Assembly (NCBI RefSeq): GCF_003018115.1
Contig: NZ_CP027457.1
Reading direction: 5' to 3' (one strand)
From: Escherichia coli
Lineage (GTDB): Bacteria > Pseudomonadota > Gammaproteobacteria > Enterobacterales > Enterobacteriaceae
Length of the DNA: 64,000 nucleotides
The notes beneath the pieces were generated by a model. It worked only from the letters and a program-made list of their open reading frames with translations. It did no database searches and was not told where the DNA came from. The position numbers were made by a program, and so were the translations under genes. Shown one piece after another: positions 1 to 13,011 of the stretch (position 1 is the stretch's first letter; each line of letters begins with the position of its first letter).

Positions 1-1429
1 CATTCATAAAATAGATATCACAGGTTTTATTATCTGTATTGATTATGATTTTTTCGAATGTTTTATAGGCAAGTGTACGACATAGCTCTCGCCCATTTTT
101 ACTGGTTAAGTCAATAGCATGAAAATCACCAAGTGAACTCACCGCTTTACTCTTCAAAGTTTTTAATGATACAGAAGCCCTTCGTAATTCCTTATCTAAT
201 ACTCTGATTTTTTCTGCTATAGCGGTAACTTCAGGCGCAACAGATAATGCAGCAATTAAATTATTAATTTTCATCTGGAGCTCAATAATTTTCAACTCTA
301 AAGTTTCATTAGCATCTTTCTTGTTTTCAACTGGTTGGATTTTACTACAATTAAAAAGCAACTCATTAATGATATTATAATCAACCAAATCTCTCTTTAT
401 TGATGGCCTGTCACATCGATGCAGTCTTCTCATCGGACAAACATAATAGCCATGCAAACTTCCAGATACCGCATGAACAATCATGGTATTACCACAAGCC
501 TCGCACTTCATAACTGTTCGAAGTAGATTTATCAACATAGGATTTTTGCTACTATTGCTAATACCAAAAGGTGCCAACCGAATTTCCTGCACAGCGTAAA
601 ACAAATCATCTGATATGACTCTGGGATAATAGCCAGCGATTTCACTTATTCCTTTACCTCTTGCACGATATGAAGGTACGCATATACCTATCAGAGCTTT
701 ATTCGCTAATAATTTTTCAATTACAGAAGGTCCCCATGCACTTTCTTTTCCTGAGAAATTCTTTACAGCATGATCATTTAAATACTTGGCTATTGCATTC
801 AATGAGCGCCTTTCCATCCTGAGTTTAAAAATTAGCTCAATAGTTTTCACCCTGTCGGGGTCTGGAACAAAAGCCGTTCTTTTGTCATCCAATGAGAGCC
901 ATCTCGGACAAGACGCCGTCATAATCGTGCCTGACTCCAGTGCATCCTGCCGTTTTTTCTTCCATGATAATTTAACCCGACTTGACTTTATCTCGCTTTC
1001 TTCATTTGCCCTTTGTGCTATAAGTATGGCTTTTATTAATGAATATGGCTCATTCAATGAGTCAATATTATAGACTGTATTATCGCAAAGAGTTATAACA
1101 TCAATACCGTGATTCAAAATCAATTTCAGACGCTCAATCGCTTCACCGACTTTTTCTCTTGAAAGTCTGTCCAGACTTTCAACTAACAATGTAGTCCCTG
1201 GCAATATATAACCATGTTCTATAGCATCTAAAAATTCCGAAAAAGCTCCTGATTGTGCATGCTTTCCATTGAATGCGCTTAACCCCAAATCTTCATACGT
1301 TACGGTATCAAGGTAATAATCACTATTTACCTTTAGCCATTCAGTAATAAGCCTTCTCTGGCGGTTTAATGAATCACCAGACATCTGACCTGGTGATGAA
1401 AATCGCATATATGCTATGGCTTTTTTCAT
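1..1429 (-). CDS. ybcK: Large serine recombinase (resolvase-type N-terminus), 5' portion only; gene runs off the window start
   Basis: Reverse-strand translation from ATG near 1429 reads MKKAIAYMRFSSPGQMSGDSLNRQRRLITEW... (resolvase catalytic Ser motif) and stays open to position 1; matches my recollection of DLP12 YbcK. Not in the ORF track because it lacks a stop in the window. Confidence 0.8.
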   Translation of the reverse strand, partial: MKKAIAYMRFSSPGQMSGDSLNRQRRLITEWLKVNSDYYLDTVTYEDLGLSAFNGKHAQSGAFSEFLDAIEHGYILPGTTLLVESLDRLSREKVGEAIERLKLILNHGIDVITLCDNTVYNIDSLNEPYSLIKAILIAQRANEESEIKSSRVKLSWKKKRQDALESGTIMTASCPRWLSLDDKRTAFVPDPDRVKTIELIFKLRMERRSLNAIAKYLNDHAVKNFSGKESAWGPSVIEKLLANKALIGICVPSYRARGKGISEIAGYYPRVISDDLFYAVQEIRLAPFGISNSSKNPMLINLLRTVMKCEACGNTMIVHAVSGSLHGYYVCPMRRLHRCDRPSIKRDLVDYNIINELLFNCSKIQPVENKKDANETLELKIIELQMKINNLIAALSVAPEVTAIAEKIRVLDKELRRASVSLKTLKSKAVSSLGDFHAIDLTSKNGRELCRTLAYKTFEKIIINTDNKTCDIYFMN

Positions 1430-1684
1430 GGTGACACCTGCTAAAGTATGCTTTTATAAACCTTAGTGGTGAGATATTATTTTTGTTTAATTTTTATTTA
1501 AAAAGACAATTAAGGTCACATTATCTTGAATATACAACAATAATCGTATTGCAATTTTCTTACACCATAATCTTGAAAGCACAAAAGAATGAATAAAAAC
1601 TAAAGACATTAACAAAAAGCATAAAACGAGGCCCATATAAATATACGAGCCTCCATATTTTAGTCGTTTAAAAACAAATTATTT

Positions 1685-2017
1685 TTAATGTGGTGTGCTT
1701 CGTGACAATAAATTAATAACCAACACACCGGCACAAATCAACATCATGCCTATAATGGCTGGCAGGTCCAACCGTTGGCCGAAAAATCCCCATGATAGTA
1801 AGCTAATCAGGACAATACCGACTCCTGACCAGATAGCATAAGCAATCCCTGTAGGAATATAAGCCAGCGTCTGAGCTAATAACCAGAATGATGCACAATA
1901 ACAAATAATTGTACCAACAGATGGCCATAACCGTGTAAAACCTTCTGAAAACTTCATTAAGGTTGTACCAATGACCTCTGCAAGTATTGCACCACCAAGA
2001 TAAATATAAGGATTCAT
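1685..2017 (-). CDS. emrE: SMR-family multidrug efflux protein EmrE (110 aa)
   Basis: Translation MNPYIYLGGAILAEVIGTTLMKFSEGFTRLWPSVGTIICYCASFWLLAQTLAYIPTGIAYAIWSGVGIVLISLLSWGFFGQRL... is essentially EmrE as I recall it; start taken at internal Met 19 of the track ORF. Confidence 0.95.
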   Translation of the reverse strand: MNPYIYLGGAILAEVIGTTLMKFSEGFTRLWPSVGTIICYCASFWLLAQTLAYIPTGIAYAIWSGVGIVLISLLSWGFFGQRLDLPAIIGMMLICAGVLVINLLSRSTPH

Positions 2018-2084
2018 AGCATATTCTTTCCTGTTCAAACTGGAGAGAATTGTACTACAGTTTGAACTCAACTCACCTGTTTCA

Positions 2085-2387
2085 TCATTGTGTACCCATT
2101 GATGTTCTTTTATATACCCTCAATACCCGTTTCATCGCGGCACTCTGGCGACACTCCTTAAAAATCAAATTCGTGCTCACCTTTCCTTCCCATTCTTCTC
2201 TGGTAGCGAACCGATAATACACCGTTCGCCAGACCTTACCATCAACGACCAGGATTCCTGCCCGCGCCATTTTAGCCGCAGCCTGATTTATGCTGGTTAC
2301 CGTTGCGCCTGTTACCGCGGCAACGTCCTGCGCACAGAATTTCTTATGAGTCCCCAGGTAATGAATAATTGCCTCTTTGCCCGTCAT
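2085..2387 (-). CDS. ren: Lambda Ren-like protein
   Basis: MTGKEAIIHYLGTH...AAKMARAGILVVDGKVWRTVYYRFATREE... is near-identical to lambda Ren as recalled; its start overlaps the P stop by 4 nt, as in lambda. Confidence 0.85.
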   Translation of the reverse strand: MTGKEAIIHYLGTHKKFCAQDVAAVTGATVTSINQAAAKMARAGILVVDGKVWRTVYYRFATREEWEGKVSTNLIFKECRQSAAMKRVLRVYKRTSMGTQ

Positions 2388-3085
2388 ACCCTTGCTCCTT
2401 TCAGCCCAAACTTAGCTTTGATTTCTGCGATCTTCGCCAGAGCCTGTGCACGATTTAGAGGTCTACCGCCCATGACAGGAAGTTGTTTTACTGGTTCAGG
2501 TATAGCCTCACCACGGTTAATTCGTGCGGTCATACAGGACAGTTCATCGGCAGCCTTGCGCCGTAATTCCGCGTCAGTCAACGCATTAGCCCGCATGTTC
2601 TGATACAGGTTGGTAACCAGCCAGTAGTGCGCGTTTGATTTCCACGGATAAGACTCTGCATCCGGATACAGCCCGCGCTTCCGGCAATACTCGTAAACCA
2701 TATCAACCAGCTCGCTGGCGTTTGGCAGCCCGGCGGTAACGGATGCTTCTTCCCGGCACCAGGCGACAAACTGCCCGGGTGATGGCAGGAATGGTCGATT
2801 CTGCCGACGGGCTACGCGCATTCCAGCGTTAACCTGTTCCATTGTGGTGATCCCGTTTTCCCGAAAAGCCAGCACCCACTGGCGGCGGATTTCGTTCAGT
2901 TCATTCTGGTCACGGTTAGCCAGGCTCGCCGGGAAAGTTGCCAGTAACTGGCTGAACACACCGTTGATGATCTGCGCTACCTGCTGTACCTGTGGCTTTT
3001 CGTCGTACTGTTCCGGCATGTTGTTGGCGATCCGACGCATCTGCTCACGGTCAAAGTTAACCATCTGTGCGGCGATGTTTTTCAT
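2384..3085 (-). CDS. P: Replication protein P (DnaB helicase loader), lambda P-like
   Basis: 233-aa translation MKNIAAQMVNFDREQMRRIANNMPEQYDEKPQVQQVAQIINGVF... matches lambda P over its full length as recalled. Confidence 0.9.
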   Translation of the reverse strand: MKNIAAQMVNFDREQMRRIANNMPEQYDEKPQVQQVAQIINGVFSQLLATFPASLANRDQNELNEIRRQWVLAFRENGITTMEQVNAGMRVARRQNRPFLPSPGQFVAWCREEASVTAGLPNASELVDMVYEYCRKRGLYPDAESYPWKSNAHYWLVTNLYQNMRANALTDAELRRKAADELSCMTARINRGEAIPEPVKQLPVMGGRPLNRAQALAKIAEIKAKFGLKGARV

Positions 3086-4101
3086 AGATCCACCCCGTAA
3101 ATCCAGTCAGTGTTTGTCAGGTCGAGTTTTGGTTTGCCGACTGTCACGCCAGCCTGTTGCTTGTTCCGGTTGATTTCGAGCTGGGTCCACTTGTCGCGGA
3201 GTTTGGCCGGACTCAGCACGTTACCGGACCAGAAGTTGTCCTGGCAGGCCCAGCGGAACAGTACACACATGTCGCGGTGGTTACGTCCATCACGTTCACG
3301 CATCAGACGGATATCGTTAGCCCACCCTGCAAAATTCGGTTTTCTGGCTGATGGCGCGATGGTCTTCACCATGTCAAACATCCACTCTGCGGCGGTCAGG
3401 TCTTCTGCTGTCCCCCACTTGCTGCCGCTCTGAATCGCAGCATCCGCTTTCACCACAGGAAGGTCGTTTTCTGGCAGGTCAGAGGATTCGCCAGAATTCT
3501 CGGACGAATAAGGTTTTATATTGTCTTTTGTTAGTTTGTCTTTTGTGTTTACCTGATTCGGGTAAGTGCCTTTACCTGATTTGGGTAAACTTTTCTTACC
3601 TGATTCAGGTAAATTTACCTCTTTCAGGTAAACTTTATTTTTCTTACCTGATTCGGGTAATTTTGACCATTCCCTGACCACATTATTAATGCCGATATTC
3701 CGCCCGCTCTGAATAAAAATCCCACGCTTTACCAGAACACTTTTTGCAGCAGAACACTTGTGCGGCAATATCCCGGTCAACTCGGAAAGTTGCTCGTTGC
3801 TCACCCAATCCAGTTTTTTATTAAAGCCATATGTTTTGCGCATGACAGCCAGGAAGACCAGAAGCTGGTGCTGTGTTAATCCGGCCAGCATTACAGCTTC
3901 CAGCAACTCATTTGCAATGCGCGTATAACCATCATCGAGATCTGCCACGCGCGGCTCCTTTTGTGCCGCATCCGGCACTGGAAAATTGAATATCTCAGCA
4001 GTGTTTGCCATAATTCCTCCCGCAATGAGTGTGTTACGATTTGCACCTGAAAGTCGGTTCTGTTGCCGCAGACCGACTTTCGCCATTTTTGAACCTGTCA
4101 T
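3082..4101 (-). CDS. O: Replication initiator O-like protein (lambda O-type N-terminal iteron-binding domain, divergent C-terminus)
   Basis: N-terminal VADLDDGYTRIANELLEAVMLAGLTQHQLLVFLAVMRKTYGFNK resembles lambda O; the gene contains the iteron array; the 4-nt overlap with P is typical. Confidence 0.85.
   Translation of the reverse strand: MTGSKMAKVGLRQQNRLSGANRNTLIAGGIMANTAEIFNFPVPDAAQKEPRVADLDDGYTRIANELLEAVMLAGLTQHQLLVFLAVMRKTYGFNKKLDWVSNEQLSELTGILPHKCSAAKSVLVKRGIFIQSGRNIGINNVVREWSKLPESGKKNKVYLKEVNLPESGKKSLPKSGKGTYPNQVNTKDKLTKDNIKPYSSENSGESSDLPENDLPVVKADAAIQSGSKWGTAEDLTAAEWMFDMVKTIAPSARKPNFAGWANDIRLMRERDGRNHRDMCVLFRWACQDNFWSGNVLSPAKLRDKWTQLEINRNKQQAGVTVGKPKLDLTNTDWIYGVDL
3550..3660. repeat. 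Replication origin iterons: five copies of about 16 bp TACCTGATTCGGGTAA (each TACC-N8-GGTA dyad) inside the O gene, next to an AT-rich stretch (about 3490-3545)
   Basis: Directly visible copies starting near 3550, 3573, 3597, 3616 and 3645; the same arrangement as ori-lambda inside O. Confidence 0.65.
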
Positions 4102-4643
4102 ATTGCCCCCAGCATGGTGGTGACCATCGCCATCAATGGACCAGCCAGATCTGGGTCCACTCGAAACATCGACACAATGCCTTCACTCATCTCCTTCAGT
4201 TTCTGGTGGCGTGGTGCGTTGAGAATGACCGCCTGCTTTGCCTCACTGAGTTCCTTTTCCATTTCAGCCAGCCGAGCCATGAAGCTATCCTGCTCAACCA
4301 GGTGGCCGCGATATTCCAGCGGTAGTACCGCCAGAATTGCCGGGGTCAGTTCACGCACGTTATTTCGGTATTTTTCAGAATCGAATTTGTTATCGAGGAA
4401 GCGGAACAGCTTCTGGCGTGCACGACTGACATCATCAGGAAAATCGATGGTGCCGCCGCCCTGTGCTCGATACTCATTCACAATGAGTGCGGCAACTACA
4501 TCCTGATTATCTTCAGCAGACCAGGCGCGGACGGCATCACGAATTTTTTCGTGGCCTGGCACCTGTTTTATTTGAGAACGATTTATCACCGCAGTCGGGC
4601 TAAATCCGCTAGTCTGTTGGTATGTAAGTGGTTGCATAATCAT
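4098..4643 (-). CDS. CII-position regulatory protein, possibly YdaT/CP76-family (181 aa)
   Basis: Occupies the cII position between cro-like and O; motifs EYRAQGGG and LTPAILAVLPLEY recall the YdaT/phage CII (CP76) family. Family assignment is from memory only. Confidence 0.5.
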   Translation of the reverse strand: MIMQPLTYQQTSGFSPTAVINRSQIKQVPGHEKIRDAVRAWSAEDNQDVVAALIVNEYRAQGGGTIDFPDDVSRARQKLFRFLDNKFDSEKYRNNVRELTPAILAVLPLEYRGHLVEQDSFMARLAEMEKELSEAKQAVILNAPRHQKLKEMSEGIVSMFRVDPDLAGPLMAMVTTMLGAI

Positions 4644-4667
4644 CGCCTTATCAGTTAACGCCGCAGA

Positions 4668-4895
4668 TTAGGCGGCAGAATTACTCGCGTTAAACAATGG
4701 TGCGAGGTCGGGACGAATATCTGCTGGCTTAATCTTTCCACCAGTGGCTGAGACAATTTTCATTACATAGCGGGCATCAATTCCGCCACCGTGTAGCCAA
4801 CGCCAAACAGTGGGCTGGGCTACACCGCATAGATCTGCCAGTCGTTTTTGACTACCTGTAATACTGATTGCGAGTTGAATGGTTTGATTTGTCAT
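4668..4895 (-). CDS. Cro-like HTH regulator (YdaS-like), 75 aa from the ATG
   Basis: Helix-turn-helix motif QKRLADLCGVAQPTVWRWL; divergent from the cI-like gene; AGGA 8 nt upstream of the ATG at 4895 (track ORF starts at a TTG at 4901). Confidence 0.6.
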   Translation of the reverse strand: MTNQTIQLAISITGSQKRLADLCGVAQPTVWRWLHGGGIDARYVMKIVSATGGKIKPADIRPDLAPLFNASNSAA

Positions 4896-5005
4896 TATCA
4901 ATTCCTATTGGTATTACAATGAATGGATAATAGCAATGCGTATTAACCATGGCAATAGCAAAACGTGTTTTGACCATCAATACGCAAGCGTATAAATTAA
5001 AACTT
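4896..5005. promoter_or_regulatory. Immunity-region divergent promoter/operator region (OR-like), with dyad sites ATAATAGCAATGCGTATTAA (about 4927-4946) and GCAATAGCAAAACGTGTTTTG (about 4952-4972)
   Basis: Intergenic between divergent cro-like and cI-like genes; dyad-symmetric repeats sharing AATAGCAA with the OL-like region at 7530-7577. Confidence 0.45.
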
Positions 5006-5698
5006 ATGAAAAAAGAAACTCTTGCTGATCGCTTAAACCTAGCGATGGAACAATCTGGGATGTCTCAAGGCGCTCTTGCAAAGGCGTCTGGCGTAGCTCA
5101 ACCCACAATCTGGAGACTGACAAGCGGCAACGCGCGCGGCTCAACAAAAATTGTTGAAATAGCGAATGCATTGGGTGTTCGAACAGAGTGGCTCTCATCA
5201 GGCATAGGCCCGATGAGAAATGACGGTCAACAATCAGGGAAGCCTACTGTCAACCATTCCAAATACTTCAAGATTGACGTTCTTGATATAGAAGTGAGTG
5301 CCGGGCCGGGAGTCATCAACCGTGAGTTTGTAGAAGTCCTACGCTCGGTTGAGTACTCGTTTGACGATGCTCGTCACATGTTCGATGGCAGGAAGGCGGA
5401 AAATATCCGCATCATTAACGTACGTGGTGACAGCATGTCAGGAACAATCGAACCAGGTGATCTGCTGTTCGTTGATATCACGGTTAAATCTTTCGACGGT
5501 GATGGCATCTATGCGTTTCTGTACGACGACACAGCCCATGTAAAGCGCCTGCAAATGATGAAGGATAAGCTGTTGGTTATCTCTGATAACAAGAGCTACT
5601 CACCGTGGGACCCGATCGAGAAAGACGAGATGAACCGGGTGTTCATTTTTGGGAAAGTCATCGGGAGCATGCCGCAGACCTACAGGAAGCATGGGTAG
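5006..5698 (+). CDS. cI: cI-like prophage repressor (N-terminal XRE-type HTH plus C-terminal S24/LexA-like autoprotease domain)
   Basis: HTH motif GMSQGALAKASGVAQPTIWRL; C-terminal region with GDSM Ser motif (RGDSMSGTIEPGDLLFVD) and downstream Lys (HVKRLQ). Start could also be the upstream ATG at 4949 (track); 5006 leaves room for operators. Confidence 0.8.
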   Translation: MKKETLADRLNLAMEQSGMSQGALAKASGVAQPTIWRLTSGNARGSTKIVEIANALGVRTEWLSSGIGPMRNDGQQSGKPTVNHSKYFKIDVLDIEVSAGPGVINREFVEVLRSVEYSFDDARHMFDGRKAENIRIINVRGDSMSGTIEPGDLLFVDITVKSFDGDGIYAFLYDDTAHVKRLQMMKDKLLVISDNKSYSPWDPIEKDEMNRVFIFGKVIGSMPQTYRKHG

Positions 5699-5733
5699 GT
5701 AGTATGTAAAGAATTACCTTTGGTTGATTTGTA

Positions 5734-5763
5734 ATAGCTACCGATTACGTTATCGGTAGCTAT
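5734..5763 (+). terminator. Perfect hairpin (12-bp arms ATAGCTACCGAT / ATCGGTAGCTAT, 6-nt loop) followed by an A/T-rich tract; possible terminator or attenuator after cI
   Basis: Inverted repeat read directly from sequence; followed by aagaaattttt. Confidence 0.35.
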
Positions 5764-5821
5764 AAGAAATTTTTATGTCTTTAACTGTGTTTATTTATTC
5801 AATACTAGTTGGACTATAGCA

Positions 5822-6844
5822 ATGAAAGATAACAGACAAAAAGTCGTTCATTATAAAAAAGCAGTAATCCCACACAGCAAATCATCATTACAAAACATAC
5901 TACTTAGTATTATAGGTGAGGGCGGCGTTGCAGAAAAAGTACTTAGTAGACAAGAAAAAATAACACCTTCAGATGAAAATTCGGGGTATCGTTTCTTAAA
6001 TAAAAGCGACACATACAAAACTATACTTTTTGGGCAACTGGTTTTATTTGAAAAAGACAAAAGCCAGTCTCTATTAGAGCTTAGTGATAATGTTAAATTT
6101 TATGACATTAACTCCATCACGTCTAATGATATAATTATTGATGGAGATAAACGTAGTGACAAAAAAAGAGAGTTTGTAGATTCAATTTTATATTTTGGTG
6201 TACTAAACAACCATGTCATGATCGTTCAATCCACATCGCTTCGAGCAAGGGAGCTTGAGGCGCATTTGAATTGGCTAATTAATACATTCACAGATGAAAA
6301 AGAATCTGTGTTAATGCTTCAAGATAAGCCATCCGAAGAAACGATGAAAAAAATGGAGAAAGCACCAGCCAAGAGCATAAAAATTGGTGGATTACCCATT
6401 ACTTCAGAAGTTAAAAATTCAGAGAACCAAACACCCTCCTTTTCAAATGGTTCGGTGAAGACAATAAAATACCGCCCAATAGGGAAAGGAGGTGCGCTAC
6501 TAAAAGCATTTTTTGGCGATAACTGGGCAAATGATATAAACATTAAAGATTCATTAGATGAGGCCAATTTACAAGTAAGCCTCGAGATTACATACTTCAG
6601 AAAAACAAATGATAGCGGTCAAGCTGTTATAGACAGTATTGCTACCTCACTACGACATCTAGATGAGGATGATATTAGCATCAAACTTCAAGGCGGTGGG
6701 GAAATAACGGGAAAAGAGATAAAATTATCCGGAAAAATTAGCGTTGAACATAACAATGGCATTATTGATGAAAATGATTTATTCTTAAAAATGCATAAGT
6801 GGCTGTTCTCAAAACTTGATGCCGGAGAATTGGTTGCAAAATAA
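5822..6844 (+). CDS. Hypothetical 340-aa soluble protein, first gene of a rexA-position two-gene module (candidate phage-exclusion component)
   Basis: Long ORF in a markedly AT-rich segment immediately downstream of cI on the same strand; no family recognised by eye; no predicted TM segment. Confidence 0.6.
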   Translation: MKDNRQKVVHYKKAVIPHSKSSLQNILLSIIGEGGVAEKVLSRQEKITPSDENSGYRFLNKSDTYKTILFGQLVLFEKDKSQSLLELSDNVKFYDINSITSNDIIIDGDKRSDKKREFVDSILYFGVLNNHVMIVQSTSLRARELEAHLNWLINTFTDEKESVLMLQDKPSEETMKKMEKAPAKSIKIGGLPITSEVKNSENQTPSFSNGSVKTIKYRPIGKGGALLKAFFGDNWANDINIKDSLDEANLQVSLEITYFRKTNDSGQAVIDSIATSLRHLDEDDISIKLQGGGEITGKEIKLSGKISVEHNNGIIDENDLFLKMHKWLFSKLDAGELVAK

Positions 6845-6865
6845 CCTACCAAAAGGAGGGCGATA

Positions 6866-7372
6866 ATGAAATCGAACATCATCCACCTTATTGGTATGTT
6901 GGTCTTCTATTTTGCTGGTTACTTTTTGTTCAAGTTAGCATTGGGCTATATTACACCGGGTGTTGTCCTAACAGCTCCGTGGGCTGTGGTTGGACTCATG
7001 CAATTGCCATTATCATATTGTATACAAGCCATTTTTAAGGCAAATGAGGCCAATGACCACTCGTCTTTAACCCCTAGTGAGGTTAGGCGATTAGTGCCAA
7101 TAGTCAAATCCAAGAGACTGAAATTGGTTTTATTATTAGCTTTCTATGTATTTTCAACTTTGTTTGTAATCTTGGGGTTAATAGCAAGCACAAATGATCA
7201 AGCCCTACTCTTCAGGGTCTTAAAAATTTCAGGTGGATTACTCTTTATTTCTCTCTATACCAGTGTATTCGTTCATAAAATAATGGTTGAGCTTCAAGAG
7301 TTTAAAGCGTTATTAAACCGAAGAGAATCAGAGAAGAAGGAAAGAGAGTCACTCCTTGATAGATTAAAATGA
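6866..7372 (+). CDS. Hypothetical 168-aa membrane protein with four predicted TM helices and a charged C-terminal tail, second gene of the rexB-position module
   Basis: Hydrophobic stretches IIHLIGMLVFYFAGYFLFKLALGYI, VVLTAPWAVVGLMQLPLSYCIQAIF, LKLVLLLAFYVFSTLFVILGLIAS and GGLLFISLYTSVFVHKIMV; RBS AAGGAGG upstream; 21-nt gap from the upstream gene. Confidence 0.6.
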   Translation: MKSNIIHLIGMLVFYFAGYFLFKLALGYITPGVVLTAPWAVVGLMQLPLSYCIQAIFKANEANDHSSLTPSEVRRLVPIVKSKRLKLVLLLAFYVFSTLFVILGLIASTNDQALLFRVLKISGGLLFISLYTSVFVHKIMVELQEFKALLNRRESEKKERESLLDRLK

Positions 7373-7381
7373 CCCCCCCTC

Positions 7382-7408
7382 CCCGGCCGTCGTGCCGGGT
7401 TTTCTTTT
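7382..7408 (+). terminator. Rho-independent terminator (stem CCCGGC/GCCGGG, loop CGTCGT, then TTTTCTTTT)
   Basis: Read directly from sequence, 10 nt after the stop of the membrane-protein gene. Confidence 0.65.
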
Positions 7409-7529
7409 GCCTCCCCTCATCACACACCGTTCAAAAAACCACCATAACCCCCGCTTCAGTTATCGCTATGCGATGCAAGTCACAAAATTAATTCCTTTTG
7501 CTATCAAACAGTTAATATCAAAATACATC

Positions 7530-7577
7530 AATCAATAGCAATAAGTATTGATATCACCAATAGCAATAGCTATTATT
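7530..7577. promoter_or_regulatory. Candidate OL-like operators / pL region: TCAATAGCAATAAGTATTGA and CCAATAGCAATAGCTATTATT
   Basis: Dyad-symmetric sites sharing the AATAGCAAT core with the OR-like region; located upstream of the N-position ORF, as OL/pL are in lambda. Confidence 0.35.
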
Positions 7578-7649
7578 ACCATGTCGCAACAACACAACGA
7601 TACGGCAACCACCTGATTCGCCGTTGCGATGACCGCTTAGATCCGCAGC

Positions 7650-8060
7650 TTGAATTTCAGCAGGCTCCGGGGAGTGCGAGGGGTGAAGCGGACGCGTGAA
7701 CGTCGGTGTGACCAGCTGAAATCAACTCAACACTTCATACCTCAGTCGCTTCAACGAGGCGGCTTAGTTATGACAACCGGCGGCCATCCACCGCCTGAAT
7801 ACGCGCAGAAGTCTCTATATGTTCAGCAGCCCAGCTTACGGGCAGGAGTTTTTATGGTTCATCAACATTACGGAACTCAGACCGTTAATCGCGGTGCCGT
7901 CCGGCCAGGTATGCTGGTTAAACACAAAGATGGTACCTGGACGGCATCAGCTAATTTGCGCGGTCGGCTTTACTTGCATCGCGGCATCGAACGAACGTAC
8001 ACAAAAGATTTGCTCGTGGAGGTTTACCTGAATGGTACTGGCGGTGGTCTGAGCCACTAA
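7650..8060 (+). CDS. Putative N-like antitermination protein (arginine-rich motif near N-terminus); start codon uncertain
   Basis: Track ORF begins at a TTG; translation contains RGVKRTRERR, resembling the lambda N arginine-rich motif (TRRRERR). Alternative starts: GTG near 7683, ATG at 7770, ATG at 7854 (the last with AGGAG 5 nt upstream). Confidence 0.35.
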   Translation: MNFSRLRGVRGVKRTRERRCDQLKSTQHFIPQSLQRGGLVMTTGGHPPPEYAQKSLYVQQPSLRAGVFMVHQHYGTQTVNRGAVRPGMLVKHKDGTWTASANLRGRLYLHRGIERTYTKDLLVEVYLNGTGGGLSH

Positions 8061-8064
8061 CTAC

Positions 8065-8370
8065 TCACTTGTTTGGGCCGTGTGGAGCCAAAGCAAATTC
8101 AAGGTTGTAGATACTCCCATCAGGGGCTTTGAAATCAACCTCAAACCGAGATGGCGGATTGAATGGATCGAGTACATTTTCTGCTACGCATGTAGATCTC
8201 CAATTGATATGGCCTTTGCCAAGCGAGCGAGATTCCCACCAAGCTCTCCAGGTCTGGTCTTGCGGTTGATCACTCCCCTTTTCCCTTACATACCAATGAT
8301 TCTTTTTCGACTGCTTACCCATTTCTGCGGTTGGGTACATCGGAGAAGACTTTAACTTATCAATCAGCAT
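8065..8370 (-). CDS. Hypothetical 101-aa protein encoded antisense to the early-left operon
   Basis: ORF on the opposite strand with AAGGTG 6 nt upstream of the ATG at 8370 (track extends to an upstream GTG at 8379); no recognisable family; no TM segment. Confidence 0.4.
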   Translation of the reverse strand: MLIDKLKSSPMYPTAEMGKQSKKNHWYVREKGSDQPQDQTWRAWWESRSLGKGHINWRSTCVAENVLDPFNPPSRFEVDFKAPDGSIYNLEFALAPHGPNK

Positions 8371-8508
8371 TCTAGACACCTTATTTATCAGATTTTGAGC
8401 AAGACATAGTGTGATCCAACATTTTGATTAATCAAGCGAGTTCATTCAAACAACTATGCAGTTAACGCACTGTCTGGATCCGCACATCAAAATTTCAGGA
8501 GTTTATCC

Positions 8509-8805
8509 ATGAACGCTTATTACATTCAGGATCGTCTTGAGGCTCAGAGCTGGGCGCGTCACTACCAGCAGATCGCCCGTGAAGAGAAAGAGGCAGAACT
8601 GGCAGACGACATGGAAAAAGGCCTGCCCCAGCACCTGTTTGAATCACTCTGCATCGATCATTTGCAACGCCACGGGGCCAGCAAAAAAGCCATTACCCGT
8701 GCGTTTGATGACGATGTTGAGTTTCAGGAGCGCATGGCAGAACACATCCGGTACATGGTTGAAACCATTGCTCACCACCAGGTTGATATTGATTCAGAGG
8801 TATAA
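8509..8805 (+). CDS. gam: Gam (RecBCD inhibitor), 98-aa form
   Basis: [60 protein letters not shown]... matches lambda Gam as recalled; AGGAG RBS. Confidence 0.95.
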
Positions 8806-8810
8806 AACGG

Positions 8811-9596
8811 ATGAGTACAGCACTCGCAACGCTGGCTGGGAAGCTGGCTGAACGTGTCGGCATGGATTCTGTCGACCCACAGGAACTGATCACCACTCTT
8901 CGCCAGACAGCATTTAAAGGCGATGCCAGCGATGCGCAGTTCATCGCATTGCTGATCGTCGCCAACCAATACGGCCTTAATCCGTGGACGAAAGAAATTT
9001 ACGCCTTCCCCGATAAGCAGAACGGCATCGTTCCGGTGGTGGGCGTTGATGGCTGGTCCCGCATCATCAACGAAAACCAGCAGTTTGACGGCATGGACTT
9101 TGAACAGGACAACGAATCCTGCACATGCCGGATTTACCGCAAAGACCGCAATCATCCGATCTGCGTTACCGAGTGGATGGATGAATGCCGCCGCGAACCA
9201 TTCAAAACCCGCGAAGGCAGAGAAATCACGGGGCCGTGGCAGTCGCATCCCAAACGGATGTTACGGCATAAAGCCATGATTCAGTGTGCCCGTCTCGCCT
9301 TCGGATTTGCTGGTATCTATGACAAGGATGAAGCCGAGCGCATTGTCGAAAATACCGCATACACTGCAGAACGTCAGCCGGAACGCGACATCACTCCGGT
9401 TAACGATGAAACCATGCAGGAGATTAACACTCTGCTGATTGCCCTGGATAAAACATGGGATGACGACTTATTGCCGCTCTGTTCCCAGATATTTCGCCGC
9501 GACATTCGCGCATCGTCAGAACTGACACAGGCCGAAGCAGTGAAAGCTCTTGGATTCCTGAAACAGAAAGCCACTGAGCAGAAGGTGGCAGCATGA
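8811..9596 (+). CDS. bet: Bet (Red-beta single-strand annealing protein), 261 aa
   Basis: Full-length match to lambda Bet as recalled ([66 protein letters not shown]...). Confidence 0.95.
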
Positions 9597-10273
9597 CACC
9601 GTACATTATCCTGCAGCGTACCGGGATCGACGTGAGAGCTGTCGAACAGGGGGATGATGCATGGCACAAATTACGGCTCGGCGTCATCACCGCTTCAGAA
9701 GTTCACAACGTGATAGCAAAGCCCCGATCAGGAAAGAAGTGGCCTGACATGAAAATGTCCTACTTCCACACCCTGCTGGCTGAGGTTTGCACCGGTGTGG
9801 CTCCGGAAGTTAATGCTAAGGCGCTGGCCTGGGGAAAACAGTACGAGAACGACGCCAGAACCCTGTTTGAATTCACTTCCGGCGTGAATATTACTGAATC
9901 CCCGATCATCTATCGCGACGAAAGTATGCGCACCGCCTGCTCTCCCGATGGTTTATGCAGTGACGGCAACGGCCTTGAACTGAAATGCCCGTTTACCTCC
10001 CGGGATTTCATGAAATTCCGGCTCGGTGGTTTCGAGGCAATAAAATCGGCTTACATGGCCCAGGTGCAGTACAGCATGTGGGTGACGCGAAAAGATGCCT
10101 GGTACTTTGCCAACTATGACCCGCGCATGAAGCGTGAAGGCCTGCATTATGTCGTGATTGAGCGGAATGAAAAGTACATGGCGAGTTTTGACGAGATGGT
10201 GCCGGAGTTCATCGAAAAAATGGACGAGGCACTGGCTGAAATTGGTTTTGTATTTGGGGAGCAATGGCGATGA
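9593..10273 (+). CDS. exo: Lambda exonuclease (Red-alpha), 226 aa
   Basis: [54 protein letters not shown]... matches lambda Exo as recalled; ATGA overlap with the bet stop. Confidence 0.95.
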
Positions 10274-10452
10274 CGCATCCTCACGATAATATCCGGGTAG
10301 GCGCGATCACTTTCGTCTACTCCGTTACAAAGCGAGGCTGGGTATTTCCCGGCCTTTCTGTTATCAGAAATCCACTGAAAGCACAGCGGCTGGCTGAGAA
10401 GATAAATAATAAACGGGAGGCGGTATGCACAAAGCATCTCCTGTTGAGTTAA
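10264..10452 (+). CDS. Small hypothetical phage protein (62 aa), lambda orf60a/orf61/orf63-position
   Basis: ORF overlapping the exo stop; position corresponds to the small orfs between exo and xis in lambda. Confidence 0.45.
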
Positions 10453-10622
10453 GAACGAGTATTGAGATGGCACATAGCCTTGCTCAAATTGGAGTCAGGT
10501 TTGTGCCAATACCAGTAGAAACAGACGAAGAATTTCATACGTTAGCCACATCCCTTTCACAAAAGCTGGAAATGATGGTGGCGAAAGCAGAAGCAGAAGC
10601 AGATGAGAGAGACCAGGTATGA
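10425..10622 (+). CDS. Small hypothetical phage protein (65 aa)
   Basis: ORF with GGGAGG-type RBS; acidic C-terminus; translationally coupled to the next ORF through an ATGA overlap. Confidence 0.5.
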   Translation: MHKASPVELRTSIEMAHSLAQIGVRFVPIPVETDEEFHTLATSLSQKLEMMVAKAEAEADERDQV

Positions 10623-10702
10623 CAACCACTGAATGCATTTTTCTGGCAGCGGGCTTCATATTCTGTGTGCTTATGCTTGCCGACATGGGGCTTGTTCAAT
10701 GA
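10619..10702 (+). CDS. Candidate 27-aa single-TM peptide (MTTTECIFLAAGFIFCVLMLADMGLVQ), below the ORF-track size cutoff
   Basis: ATG overlaps the upstream stop (ATGA) and its own stop overlaps the downstream ATG (ATGA); hydrophobic core consistent with one membrane helix. Confidence 0.35.
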   Translation: MTTTECIFLAAGFIFCVLMLADMGLVQ

Positions 10703-10914
10703 CACCTCAGCAAGAAAACGCCCTTCGCAGCATTGCCCGTCAGGCTAATTCTGAAATCAAAAAAGCCAGACAGCATTTTCCGGATAAAAACGTCGATGAC
10801 ATTTGCCGTAGCGTACTAAAGAAGCACCGCGAAACGGTAACGCTGATGGGATTCACACCGACTCATTTAAGCCTGGCGATCGGCATGTTGAACGGCGTCT
10901 TTAAGGAACGGTGA
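10699..10914 (+). CDS. Small hypothetical phage protein (71 aa from MTPQQ...)
   Basis: Internal ATG of track ORF 10633-10914, chosen because it is translationally coupled to the upstream small ORF. Confidence 0.5.
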   Translation: MTPQQENALRSIARQANSEIKKARQHFPDKNVDDICRSVLKKHRETVTLMGFTPTHLSLAIGMLNGVFKER

Positions 10915-11012
10915 ACATGAAAAGCAAAATCATCAGGGAGCTACAGGCTCCTTTTTTATTATTCGCATTTACCCTCAAGCGTATTAACCAACAATTCAGG
11001 GATTAATGAAAG

Positions 11013-11231
11013 ATGGCAGACATCATTGATTCAGCATCAGAAATCGAAGAATTACAGCGCAATACAGCAATAAAAATGCGTCGTCTGAACTACCAGACTG
11101 TATCCGCAACTCATTGTTGTGAGTGTGGCGATCCGATAGATGAGCGAAGACGCCTGGCTGTTCAGGGTTGTCGGACTTGTGCAAGTTGCCAGGAGGAGAT
11201 CGAACTTAAGAACAAACAATGGGGACTGTGA
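11013..11231 (+). CDS. TraR/DksA-family C4 zinc-finger protein (72 aa)
   Basis: CxxC...17...CxxC motif (CCECGDPIDERRRLAVQGCRTCASC) typical of TraR/DksA C4 zinc fingers; common in lambdoid early-left regions. Confidence 0.7.
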   Translation: MADIIDSASEIEELQRNTAIKMRRLNYQTVSATHCCECGDPIDERRRLAVQGCRTCASCQEEIELKNKQWGL

Positions 11232-11278
11232 TGGCCTCAAAGCAGCAAATTTCAACATCATCCAACTGAGGTGTAAAA

Positions 11279-11557
11279 ATGTTCAGAATCATTTTTCCTA
11301 ACACCTGGTACGTCGACCACCACGGCACTCCCTGCAAAATCCTGCGTTCTACCCACAACAAAGTTCACTACATCCGAAAAGGCAGAACATGTATCGCCAG
11401 CATGTTCCGCTTTAATCATGACTTTGAACCTGTGAATAAAGCTGATGCAGATCGGATAGCAGAAGAGATCGAAACGGCAGAACACATTAAGAAGTTACGT
11501 GACATGCGTTCAAAAAGCAGAGGTAACCATGGAATCATACAGCCTCACACTCGATGA
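11279..11557 (+). CDS. Hypothetical phage protein (92 aa), upstream of xis
   Basis: ORF with AGGTG-type RBS in the position occupied by ea-type accessory genes in lambda; no family recognised. Confidence 0.45.
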   Translation: MFRIIFPNTWYVDHHGTPCKILRSTHNKVHYIRKGRTCIASMFRFNHDFEPVNKADADRIAEEIETAEHIKKLRDMRSKSRGNHGIIQPHTR

Positions 11558-11900
11558 GGCCTGTCAGTTTCTTAAGATATCCAGACCAACCGCCACCAAC
11601 TGGATACGAACAGGCCGCCTACAGGCAACACGTAAAGATCCAACCAAGCCAAAATCTCCTTACCTCACAACACGGCAAGCCTGCATTGCGGCGCTTCAGT
11701 CTCCGCTGCATACTGTCCAGGTGAGCGCGGGTGATGGCATAACAGAGGAAAGAAAATGTCACTCTTCCGCAGAAATGAAATATGGTATGCCTCGTATTCG
11801 CTCCCGGGCGGGAAACGAATTAAGGAATCTCTTGGCACAAAGGACAAGCGGCAAGCTCAGGAGTTGCACGACAAGCGAAAAGCAGAACTCTGGCGAGTAG
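11529..11900 (+). CDS. xis: Excisionase-like (AlpA/Xis-type HTH) ORF; reading frame runs about 145 nt into int, so the true 3' end is uncertain
   Basis: [36 protein letters not shown] is an AlpA-like HTH; immediately upstream of the integrase. Confidence 0.45.
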
Positions 11901-12919
11901 AAAAGCTAGGGGATTTACCTGATGTCACTTTTGAAGAGGCCTGCCTAAGATGGCTTGAGGAAAAAGCTGATAAAAAATCTCTCGATTCAGATAAAAGCCG
12001 GATTGAGTTCTGGCTTGAACATTTTGAGGGTATAAGGCTTAAAGATATCTCGGAGGCAAAGATTTACTCTGCTGTAAGCAGAATGCATAACAGAAAGACG
12101 AAAGAAATATGGAAACAGAAAGTTCAGGCCGCCATCAGGAAAGGTAAAGAACCGCCTGTTTATGAACCAAAGCCAGTATCAACTCAGACAAAGGCAAAGC
12201 ATCTTGCCATGATAAAGGCCATTCTCCGTGCTGCAGAACGCGACTGGAAGTGGCTGGAAAAAGCGCCTGTCATCAAGATACCAGCGGTCAGAAACAAGCG
12301 AGTCAGATGGCTGGAAAAGGAGGAAGCAAAACGCCTTATTGATGAGTGCCCCGAACCACTGAAATCTGTCGTCAAGTTTGCGCTGGCAACTGGTCTGAGA
12401 AAGTCGAACATCATAAATCTGGAATGGCAACAAATCGACATGCAGCGACGAGTTGCCTGGGTGAATCCAGAAGAGAGCAAATCAAACCGCGCCATTGGCG
12501 TGGCGCTGAACGATACCGCCTGTAAAGTGTTGCGTGATCAAATAGGCAAGCATCACAAATGGGTGTTTGTACATACCAAGGCGGCTAAGCGAGCAGATGG
12601 AACATCAACGCCTGCGGTCAGGAAGATGCGCATCGACAGCAAGACATCATGGCTATCAGCTTGTCGTCGTGCAGGAATTGAAGATTTCCGTTTCCATGAC
12701 CTCAGACACACCTGGGCAAGCTGGCTGATTCAGTCAGGCGTCCCATTATCAGTGCTTCAGGAAATGGGCGGATGGGAGTCCATAGAAATGGTTCGTAGGT
12801 ATGCTCACCTTGCGCCTAATCATTTGACAGAGCATGCGAGGAAAATAGACGACATTTTTGGTGATAATGTCCCAAATATGTCCCACTCTGGAATTATGGA
12901 GGATATAAAGAAGGCGTAA
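11756..12919 (+). CDS. intD: Tyrosine integrase, DLP12 IntD-type (387 aa)
   Basis: Full-length match to DLP12 IntD as recalled ([46 protein letters not shown]...; C-terminal [10 protein letters not shown]...RYAHL catalytic region); stop 16 nt from the tRNA 3' end. Confidence 0.95.
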
Positions 12920-12934
12920 CTGATTGAATTGTAA

Positions 12935-13011
12935 TGGCGCGCCCTGCAGGATTCGAACCTGCGGCCCACGACTTAGAAGGTCGTTGCTCTATCCAACTGA
13001 GCTAAGGGCGC
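12935..13011 (-). tRNA. argU: tRNA-Arg (anticodon UCU)
   Basis: Reverse complement reads GCGCCCTTAGCTCAGTTGGATAGAGCAACGACCTTCTAAGTCGTGGGCCGCAGGTTCGAATCCTGCAGGGCGCGCCA; cloverleaf with TCT anticodon and encoded CCA. Confidence 0.95.

Follow-up and report, generated by a model that had tools for sequence, protein, structure and literature searches.

Does the gene pair at the cro and cII positions of a lambda-type immunity region in the Escherichia coli contig NZ_CP027457.1 encode the two regulators of a lysis/lysogeny switch or a toxin-like module? We addressed this question in a stretch of 64,000 nucleotides (nt) of that contig (assembly GCF_003018115.1), hereafter called the window, in which a complete lambda-type immunity region lies in reverse orientation with the gene order cI, cro-like, cII-like, O, and P. 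An earlier note, made from the letters of this DNA alone, had assigned the two open reading frames (ORFs) to the cro and cII positions, and they do stand there, between a divergent cI of the S24 type and lambda O/P-like genes. We consider it quite probable that the pair comprises the Cro and CII analogues with which an intact prophage of the DLP12 type runs a lambda-type lysis/lysogeny switch, and that the CII analogue activates a leftward promoter. Established here are the family membership, the fold, the gene order, the operators and promoters as read from the sequence, and the conservation of the geometry between a candidate CII box and a −10-like hexamer. The pair itself is ordinary and already known, with near-identical genes annotated cII in phages and with crystal structures and functional studies published for the family. 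The sole element beyond published work is the conserved arrangement of a box, 20 nt, and a TAnnnT hexamer, which is a refinement and not a new kind of system.

Both proteins belong to the families that the earlier note had named from the Rac prophage. In a Pfam profile search, a check that the note had itself proposed, the product of 4098-4643 matched PF06254 (YdaT_toxin) with 103.5 bits (cutoff 21; E = 8e-30), and the 75-amino-acid (aa) protein matched PF15943 (YdaS_toxin; Cro superfamily) with 54.6 bits (cutoff 30). The further link to the phage CII (CP76) family was not borne out: PF06892 (phage 186 CII, "Phage_CP76") matched neither protein even at E ≤ 10, and the true named relative of the CII analogue is phi80 CII. 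As the note had anticipated, the proteins are not of the lambda Cro/CII type, with no match of either to PF05269 (lambda CII) or PF09048 (lambda Cro) at E ≤ 10; the named families of NCBIfam likewise matched neither of them. Among the PHROGs, the CII analogue matched phrog_163, a "CII-like transcriptional activator," with E = 1e-66 over residues 19 to 181, and the 75-aa protein matched phrog_35, a transcriptional repressor, with E = 9e-24. Of the two lengths given previously, that of 75 aa stands, and that of 181 aa corresponds to a real ORF (4098-4643, minus strand), of which the second ATG, at 4637, is most likely the start of the cII analogue, giving 179 aa. The latter start is favored because the homologues open with MQ or MH followed by S-L, because database clusters and the NCBI pipeline PGAP give 179 to 180 aa, and because the spacing to an AAGG Shine-Dalgarno motif is better.

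The fold of the CII analogue points to the same family. Its best sequence matches in the PDB were 8bt1 (YdaT of CP-933P) and 3c4r, and its AlphaFold (AF2) monomer model, built with 37 homologues as input, reached a mean predicted local distance difference test score (pLDDT) of 77.5. In this model, residues 1 to 25 are disordered and are followed by helices 29-43 and 45-58, a long α2-α3 loop (59-69) that carries the GGG motif, the recognition helix 70-82, helices 88-104, 107-112, and 119-138, and two extra C-terminal helices (143-178). This is a POU-like five-helix helix-turn-helix (HTH) domain followed by a long helix, as in the YdaT family, and Foldseek retrieved only 3c4r and 8bt1 from the PDB as significant matches (probability 1.0, template modeling [TM] score of ~0.66). 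Both motifs named in the earlier note are in the translation, GGG in "...RAQGGGTIDF..." and PAILA in "...LTPAILAVLP..."; P-A-I is unchanged in the alignment of phi80-type, Rac, and CP-933P YdaT. All of the 37 homologues have arginine R79 (179-aa numbering), whose counterparts in the alignment are Arg60 in CP-933P and R57 in Rac; this α3 arginine has been described as the sole fully conserved recognition-helix residue of the YdaT family and as needed for binding in Rac. The protein thus shares with CP-933P YdaT its Pfam family, its fold, the long α2-α3 loop, the recognition-helix arginine, PAI, and a gene position behind a YdaS-family cro analogue, whereas it differs from it by an identity of only ~27%, by the 25-residue disordered N-terminal extension, and by the two extra C-terminal helices. 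Compared with Rac YdaS/YdaT (E. coli K-12 b1357/b1358), both families occur in the same order beside a divergent repressor, whereas YdaT identity is 33% and the recognition helix has F-R-F where Rac has H56-R57-W58.

The closest named protein, phi80 CII (NC_021190 gp48; X13065 cII), is 66% identical over its full length, with the same N-terminal extension and the same GPLMxMVTxMLG C-terminal tail, and its gene is likewise flanked by gene 30, a cro analogue, and by the O-like gene 15, with a hairpin of the M3/oop-like RNA following. Unlike in phi80, the cI, cro, and operators of the window are unrelated to those of that phage, the window cro being of the HK639 type, and the spacer from cII to O is annotated as coding in close relatives. 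Among other relatives, the protein is 95 to 98% identical to cII of Perceval, 4A7, 1W, and 3W, 67% to that of mEp237, 53% to those of HK225 and HK639, and ~35% to the Rac type. At the nucleotide level, the 4 kb around the pair are 96.8% identical to coliphage Perceval and ~96.5% identical to 4A7, Lambda_4C10, 1W, 3W, and several PhiR phages, in whose records the counterpart is annotated cII. The 1.6-kb cI-cro-cII block was present, at a coverage of at least 80%, in 716 of 5,426 complete E. coli genomes, where the RefSeq/PGAP label of the CII analogue is "toxin YdaT domain-containing protein." We also observed that the hydrophobic C-terminal tail DPDLAGPLMAMVTTMLGAI (residues 160-179; window 4098-4160) is strongly kept, even at 47% identity, that it is not present in the aligned Rac or CP-933P YdaT, and that the conserved C-terminal stretch of the protein reads GPLMAMVTTMLGAI. 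By analogy with lambda CII, which bears a C-terminal FtsH tag, one might speculate that this tail is a degradation or membrane-targeting signal.

The placement of both genes agrees with these assignments. The cII analogue lies 3' of the cro analogue and ahead of the replication genes; the 75-aa gene is divergent from cI and lies 34 bp downstream of the −10 of a PR-like promoter, as is found for the YdaS family. This gene begins at an ATG with the Shine-Dalgarno sequence AGGA 7 nt upstream, and its product also showed weak sequence similarity to 3bd1 and 5w8y, both all-alpha Cro proteins. Only 24 bp (4644-4667) separate cro from cII, which leaves no lambda-style nutR/tR1 interval. A GC hairpin around the cro stop codon is kept beside unrelated cro genes that all end with Ala-Ala; since its 5' arm encodes the Ala-Ala ending of many unrelated cro-slot proteins, the hairpin marks a mosaic junction and moves with the cII module. 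It is possibly a boxB-like or processing site.

Whether such a pair regulates the lysogeny decision or acts as a toxin was still an open matter in the earlier note, a view that is out of date. The published work on Rac and CP-933P identified YdaS/YdaT as Cro/CII analogues by genetic context and reporter assays, not as a toxin-antitoxin pair, toxicity being a side effect of overexpression (PMC5917428, PMC8630535, PMC9986795, PMC11879457). The toxin label arose from a prediction algorithm, and direct tests gave no confirmation of it. The question is, therefore, largely settled in the literature in favor of regulators, and the window cII adds to this by its recombination with unrelated cro types: across 70 loci, the cro slot ahead of the phi80-type cII is filled by proteins of at least seven unrelated groups, among them members of the YdaS family, XRE proteins of the HTH_3 type, and a true lambda Cro (PF09048; locus L067). 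Thus, cro and cII are separate mosaic modules and not a co-inherited pair, the opposite of what is expected of toxin and antitoxin. A toxin-antitoxin or toxin-repressor module for growth arrest or prophage stabilization, with YdaT as the toxin and YdaS as the antitoxin or co-toxin, is still what the Pfam names "YdaS_toxin" and "YdaT_toxin" and the PGAP product name call to mind, and the lethal de-repression of Rac ydaST and the filamentation upon overexpression of Rac YdaT agree with it. We nevertheless regard such a module as hardly credible here: besides the exchange of cro partners, PADLOC returned no convincing model match for either protein, CP-933P YdaT is non-toxic and the direct tests showed no toxin-antitoxin behavior, the toxicity of Rac was traced to off-target activation of the host gene rcsA (host-directed effects on rcsA being known for Rac only), overproduced lambda CII is toxic too, and the modeled fold of the CII analogue is that of a DNA-binding HTH protein.

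As Cro and CII analogues, the two proteins would act by DNA binding and activation in a direction of regulation that we infer as follows: (i) once the phage has infected a cell or been induced, PR (4955-4927, minus strand) would transcribe the genes of the 75-aa protein, the 179-aa protein, and then O and P; (ii) the 75-aa protein would oppose the expression of cI from the three OR operators, in a Cro-like manner; (iii) the 179-aa phi80-type CII, with its C-terminal helices probably serving oligomerization, would bind a repeat in its own codons 17 to 22 (4572-4589); (iv) the bound CII analogue would activate a weak leftward promoter beside this repeat, with its −10 at 4610-4615, a start near 4622 (plus strand), and the box center at −41.5; and (v) the transcript from ~4622 would run antisense through cro into cI and establish repression, as that of lambda PRE does. 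The likeness to lambda would thus lie in the same gene positions, in CII-type activation of a leftward establishment promoter with its site in the 5' end of cII, in an oop-type antisense RNA, and in a leaderless PRM-type cI transcript. Unlike these shared traits, the proteins have no sequence or family relationship with those of lambda, and YdaT-type proteins are symmetric tetramers on an inverted repeat, whereas lambda CII recognizes the direct repeat TTGC-N6-TTGC.

The candidate box (sense GTGATAAATCGTTCTCAA, plus strand TTGAGAACGATTTATCAC) is suggested by its conservation at the nucleotide level. Among 16 representatives with less than 95% identity over the first 150 nt of the gene, Ile18 is always encoded by the rare codon ATA and Gln22 always by CAA, while the adjacent codons vary freely; synonymous diversity over codons 2 to 22 is 0.1 to 0.2, compared with a gene mean of 0.44. 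The box is accompanied by a −10-like hexamer at a fixed distance. In 13 YdaT-family lineages (Rac; Tritos, of the CP-933P type; two Klebsiella phages; Citrobacter phage Chris1; Aeromonas phage pAEv1818; Stenotrophomonas phage BUCT708; and six of the phi80 type, the window included), a TAnnnT hexamer lies 20 nt from the box in 11 and 21 nt from it in 2, always on the cI-proximal side. At other offsets from 5 to 44 nt, no TAnnnT was common to three or more of the 13 lineages, and there was none on the opposite side; TAnnnT has a background frequency of 0.0095 per position. phi80 itself shares this arrangement of box and −10 at codons 17 to 22. The composite pattern TTGA-N9-ATCA-N21-TANNNT, with at most one mismatch, has two matches in the window, both in the immunity region, and the one at 4572-4615 has 0 mismatches.

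A center at −41.5 is the classic position of a class II activator, and a poor −35 is expected of an activator-dependent promoter. We lean slightly toward the view that YdaT-family CII analogues of E. coli, Klebsiella, Citrobacter, Aeromonas, and Stenotrophomonas phages are class II-type activators of a promoter adjacent to the box, with the box center at −41.5 and the −10 hexamer 20 nt from the box edge. Several points weigh against our main reading. The low synonymous diversity extends over the whole 5' 66 nt (codons 2 to 22) and may partly reflect a translation-initiation constraint or a recombination junction; of the 12 positions specified in the footprinted consensus, the candidate box agrees with only 8; and the predicted −10 (TAGTCT) and −35 are weak, a consensus promoter scan giving nothing there. 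The literature consulted contained no binding or transcription data for the window protein or any phi80-type member. Moreover, the authors of the Rac study credit activation to PracR4, a software-predicted promoter ~190 bp from the box, and the structural paper on CP-933P sets the box downstream of PRE.

The box and the TAnnnT hexamer might then not be a promoter at all but an extended protein-binding site, an mRNA element governing the translation of cII, or a linker for recombination between modules. The spread of low synonymous diversity beyond the two elements would agree with this, as would the lack of a consensus −35; a scan for consensus sigma-70 promoters on the antisense strand near the cII start in 18 lineages likewise found no common −35/−10 pair, the activator-type geometry anchored on the box being the only one conserved. 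However, activator-dependent promoters are usually without a −35, the hexamer is on the cI-proximal side every time, and the distance between box and hexamer is fixed while the position of the box relative to the start codon runs from −41 to +49 among the lineages, which argues against a coding or translational explanation. We, therefore, judge a non-promoter function of the two elements unlikely and retain the box-adjacent promoter.

Such a promoter would also fit the published data, on our interpretation of them. The tetrameric YdaT of CP-933P protects TTGATT-N6-AATCAA at the ydaS/ydaT junction in footprinting and switches on a PRE-type reporter; its box lies over the start codon, unlike the candidate box of the window, which lies in coding sequence at +49. 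The CP-933P reporter fragment starts just 18 bp beyond the box, a position obtained by placing its primer on phage Tritos, whose ydaT 5' end is identical; this leaves only the cro side of the box for the activated promoter. In CP-933P-type phages, TAGTTT is found there at 21 nt from the box (L090, Tritos 758-802), and the published primer suggests one C fewer in the CP-933P spacer, in which case the distance would be 20 nt. In Rac, the sequence that YdaT protects is ATGATT-N6-AATCAA, which covers the start codon of ydaT, and this box is needed for a 29-fold activation of leftward transcription. As in the window, the box near the ydaT 5' end is followed in Rac by a −10-like hexamer at 20 nt, here a strong TATGAT (1420651-1420656, in the stretch 1420651-1420694 of NC_000913.3), which the published Rac reporter also includes. 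Both systems differ from the window in their repressors, which are not SOS-cleavable: PaaR2 in CP-933P and RacR in Rac, itself a defective prophage, stand against the cleavable S24-type repressor of the window. A search of the literature consulted for a mapped phi80 PRE gave nothing usable.

A further inverted repeat of the window that resembles the box, TTGATTTGTCATTATCAA, spans the start codon of cro (Table 1). With one mismatch, it is the sole match to TTGATTN6AATCAA with at most one mismatch in the 64 kb, where 0.29 would be expected by chance. It belongs to the second composite, a box, 20 nt, and TATTAC at 4858-4901 (minus strand), which points rightwards into cro and cII and which, if functional, would serve either as a CII-dependent promoter for positive feedback or as an operator covering the ribosome-binding site of cro. 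A scan of phi80-type relatives with at most two mismatches found nothing consistent, and the repeat was rejected as a family feature. It could be a second operator-like site, and a possible second site around the cro/ydaS start may be shared with Rac; it could equally be due to chance.

This repeat raises the alternative that the CII analogue is mainly a repressor or roadblock, which would bind 4884-4901, possibly loop to the site in cII, and shut the PR operon without any activation of a PRE. Nowhere else in the window, indeed, is the footprinted consensus matched so well, YdaT tetramers are able to hold two DNA duplexes, Rac YdaT also binds near the ydaS start and lowers racR expression, and the two sites of the window are 312 bp apart, similar to Rac. 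Against this, the repeat, although kept in close relatives, is not found in phi80-type relatives with other cro genes and is degraded in Perceval, it has TATTAC in place of a proper TAnnnT partner, and the reproducible effect in both studied homologues is activation. A mainly repressing CII analogue, thus, appears quite improbable, and activation of the leftward promoter remains our preferred reading. No extra boxes marking PI- or PaQ-type promoters were found above chance in the window, the Q region being outside it.

Table 1. Coordinates in the window of the genes, sites, and RNA elements of the immunity region
Feature	Position	Strand	Description	Basis or occurrence
Candidate CII (YdaT) box	4572..4589		cII codons 17-22; sense GTGATAAATCGTTCTCAA; plus strand TTGAGAACGATTTATCAC	Nucleotide conservation, likeness to footprinted boxes
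−10-like hexamer TAGTCT of predicted PRE-like promoter	4610..4615	+	20 nt from box	
CII analogue, phi80-type YdaT-family regulator	4098..4637	-	179 aa (181 aa from 4643)	Pfam, PHROG, AF2/Foldseek, identity
Cro analogue, YdaS-family HTH	4668..4895	-	75 aa; first gene of PR operon	ORF, Pfam, PHROG
GC hairpin GCCGC...GCGGC around cro stop codon	4660..4676	-	cro/cII module junction	Seen in L002, L005, L007, and others too
Second box-like inverted repeat	4884..4901		TTGATTTGTCATTATCAA; over cro start codon	One mismatch to TTGATTN6AATCAA
cI repressor	5006..5698	+	N-terminal HTH and C-terminal LexA-type S24 self-cleavage domain	Pfam, PHROG
OR, three 16-bp operator-like repeats	4929-4944, 4954-4969, 4979-4994		25 bp apart; consensus AATAGCAAnnCGTATT	Direct-repeat family D1
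PR-like promoter	4927..4955	-	TTGCCA, 17 nt, TG-TATTAT; overlaps operators 1 and 2	Promoter scan, 10/12
PRM-like promoter	4970..4998	+	TTGACC, 17 nt, TAAATT	Promoter scan
Lambda O-like replication initiator	3082..4011 (annotated from 4101)	-		PF04492, phrog_277
Lambda P-like replication gene	2384-3085	-		
oop/M3-like antisense RNA unit, cII-O spacer	3986..4082	+	RNA ~4023-4082; hairpin 4049-4081	

The remainder of the immunity region is that of a lambda-type switch (Table 1). The cI product matched PF00717 (E = 1.6e-18), PF01381, and phrog_4 (E = 4e-70), and its translation shows the SAG and GDSM motifs and the K in VKRL. The predicted start of PRM coincides with the cI ATG at 5006, and the resulting mRNA would be leaderless, an arrangement that has been demonstrated by experiment for CP-933P paaR2. 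A putative OL, read from the sequence, consists of two more operator copies with a PL-like promoter at 7534-7576, whose −10 is at 7571-7576. No N-like ORF was evident in 7577-7853, between the PL-like promoter and kil (7854-8060), and the PL leader of ~270 nt might carry an RNA-based antitermination element, by analogy with HK022 and HK639.

On the other side of the pair, the cII-O spacer contains an oop/M3-like antisense RNA unit with the promoter-like elements TTGAAT (3986-3991) and CATAAT (4009-4014), 17 nt apart. The 87 bp of spacer before the likely O start at 4011 can be aligned with the M3 RNA annotated in phi80, which is the oop homologue; compensatory changes preserve the pairing of the hairpin, and the fold z-score is −3.4. 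Since Rfam gave no match over window positions 1-12000 at E ≤ 1, the identity of this oop/M3-like RNA is read from the phi80 alignment alone. The annotated O-like start at 4101 lengthens the N terminus by 30 codons, which overlap the stop codon of cII and would cover the M3-like RNA region. This start is probably mis-called, and the ATG at 4011 (Met31) is likelier, because PF04492 and phrog_277 align from residue 31, a GGAGGA Shine-Dalgarno sequence precedes it, and it matches the start of phi80 gene 15.

The window opens inside the DLP12-type lambdoid prophage, and its positions 1-13000 hold, in order, ybcK, emrE, ren, P, O, cII, cro, cI, kil, gam, bet, exo, and intD, the prophage ending at a tRNA-Arg gene at ~12.9 to 13.0 kb; the host genes fimZ, sfm, folD, and cysS lie beyond. 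In a 99.9%-identical strain (L089), the element is an intact DLP12-type prophage at tRNA-Arg (argU) beside intD, and the head, lysis, and Q-type genes lie past what is the left edge of the window. The multidrug transporter gene emrE (1685-2017, minus strand) is phage cargo. Directly after cI, in the rexA/rexB slot, lies a two-gene cassette that encodes a soluble protein of 340 aa (5822-6844, plus strand) and a protein of 168 aa that looks membrane spanning (6866-7372, plus strand), followed by a GC hairpin and a T-run at ~7372-7400. Neither protein had a Pfam or PADLOC match, and their PHROG families, 3482 and 16807, are without an assigned function; the cassette is a candidate Rex-like exclusion or abortive-infection pair.

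Our analysis bears first on annotation, as the NCBI pipeline still uses the toxin YdaT name in hundreds of E. coli genomes for genes that are to be read as cro/cII analogues. Beyond annotation, if the proposed arrangement is true, phi80-type phages carry this promoter and its box within the first 22 codons of cII, which would explain why the N-terminal extension of the protein is conserved yet disordered, and the activator and its target would be kept linked through mosaic recombination. On the same condition, the conserved geometry would locate the establishment promoter that is served by a very widespread alternative to lambda CII, and it would offer a way of revising the current models of Rac and CP-933P.

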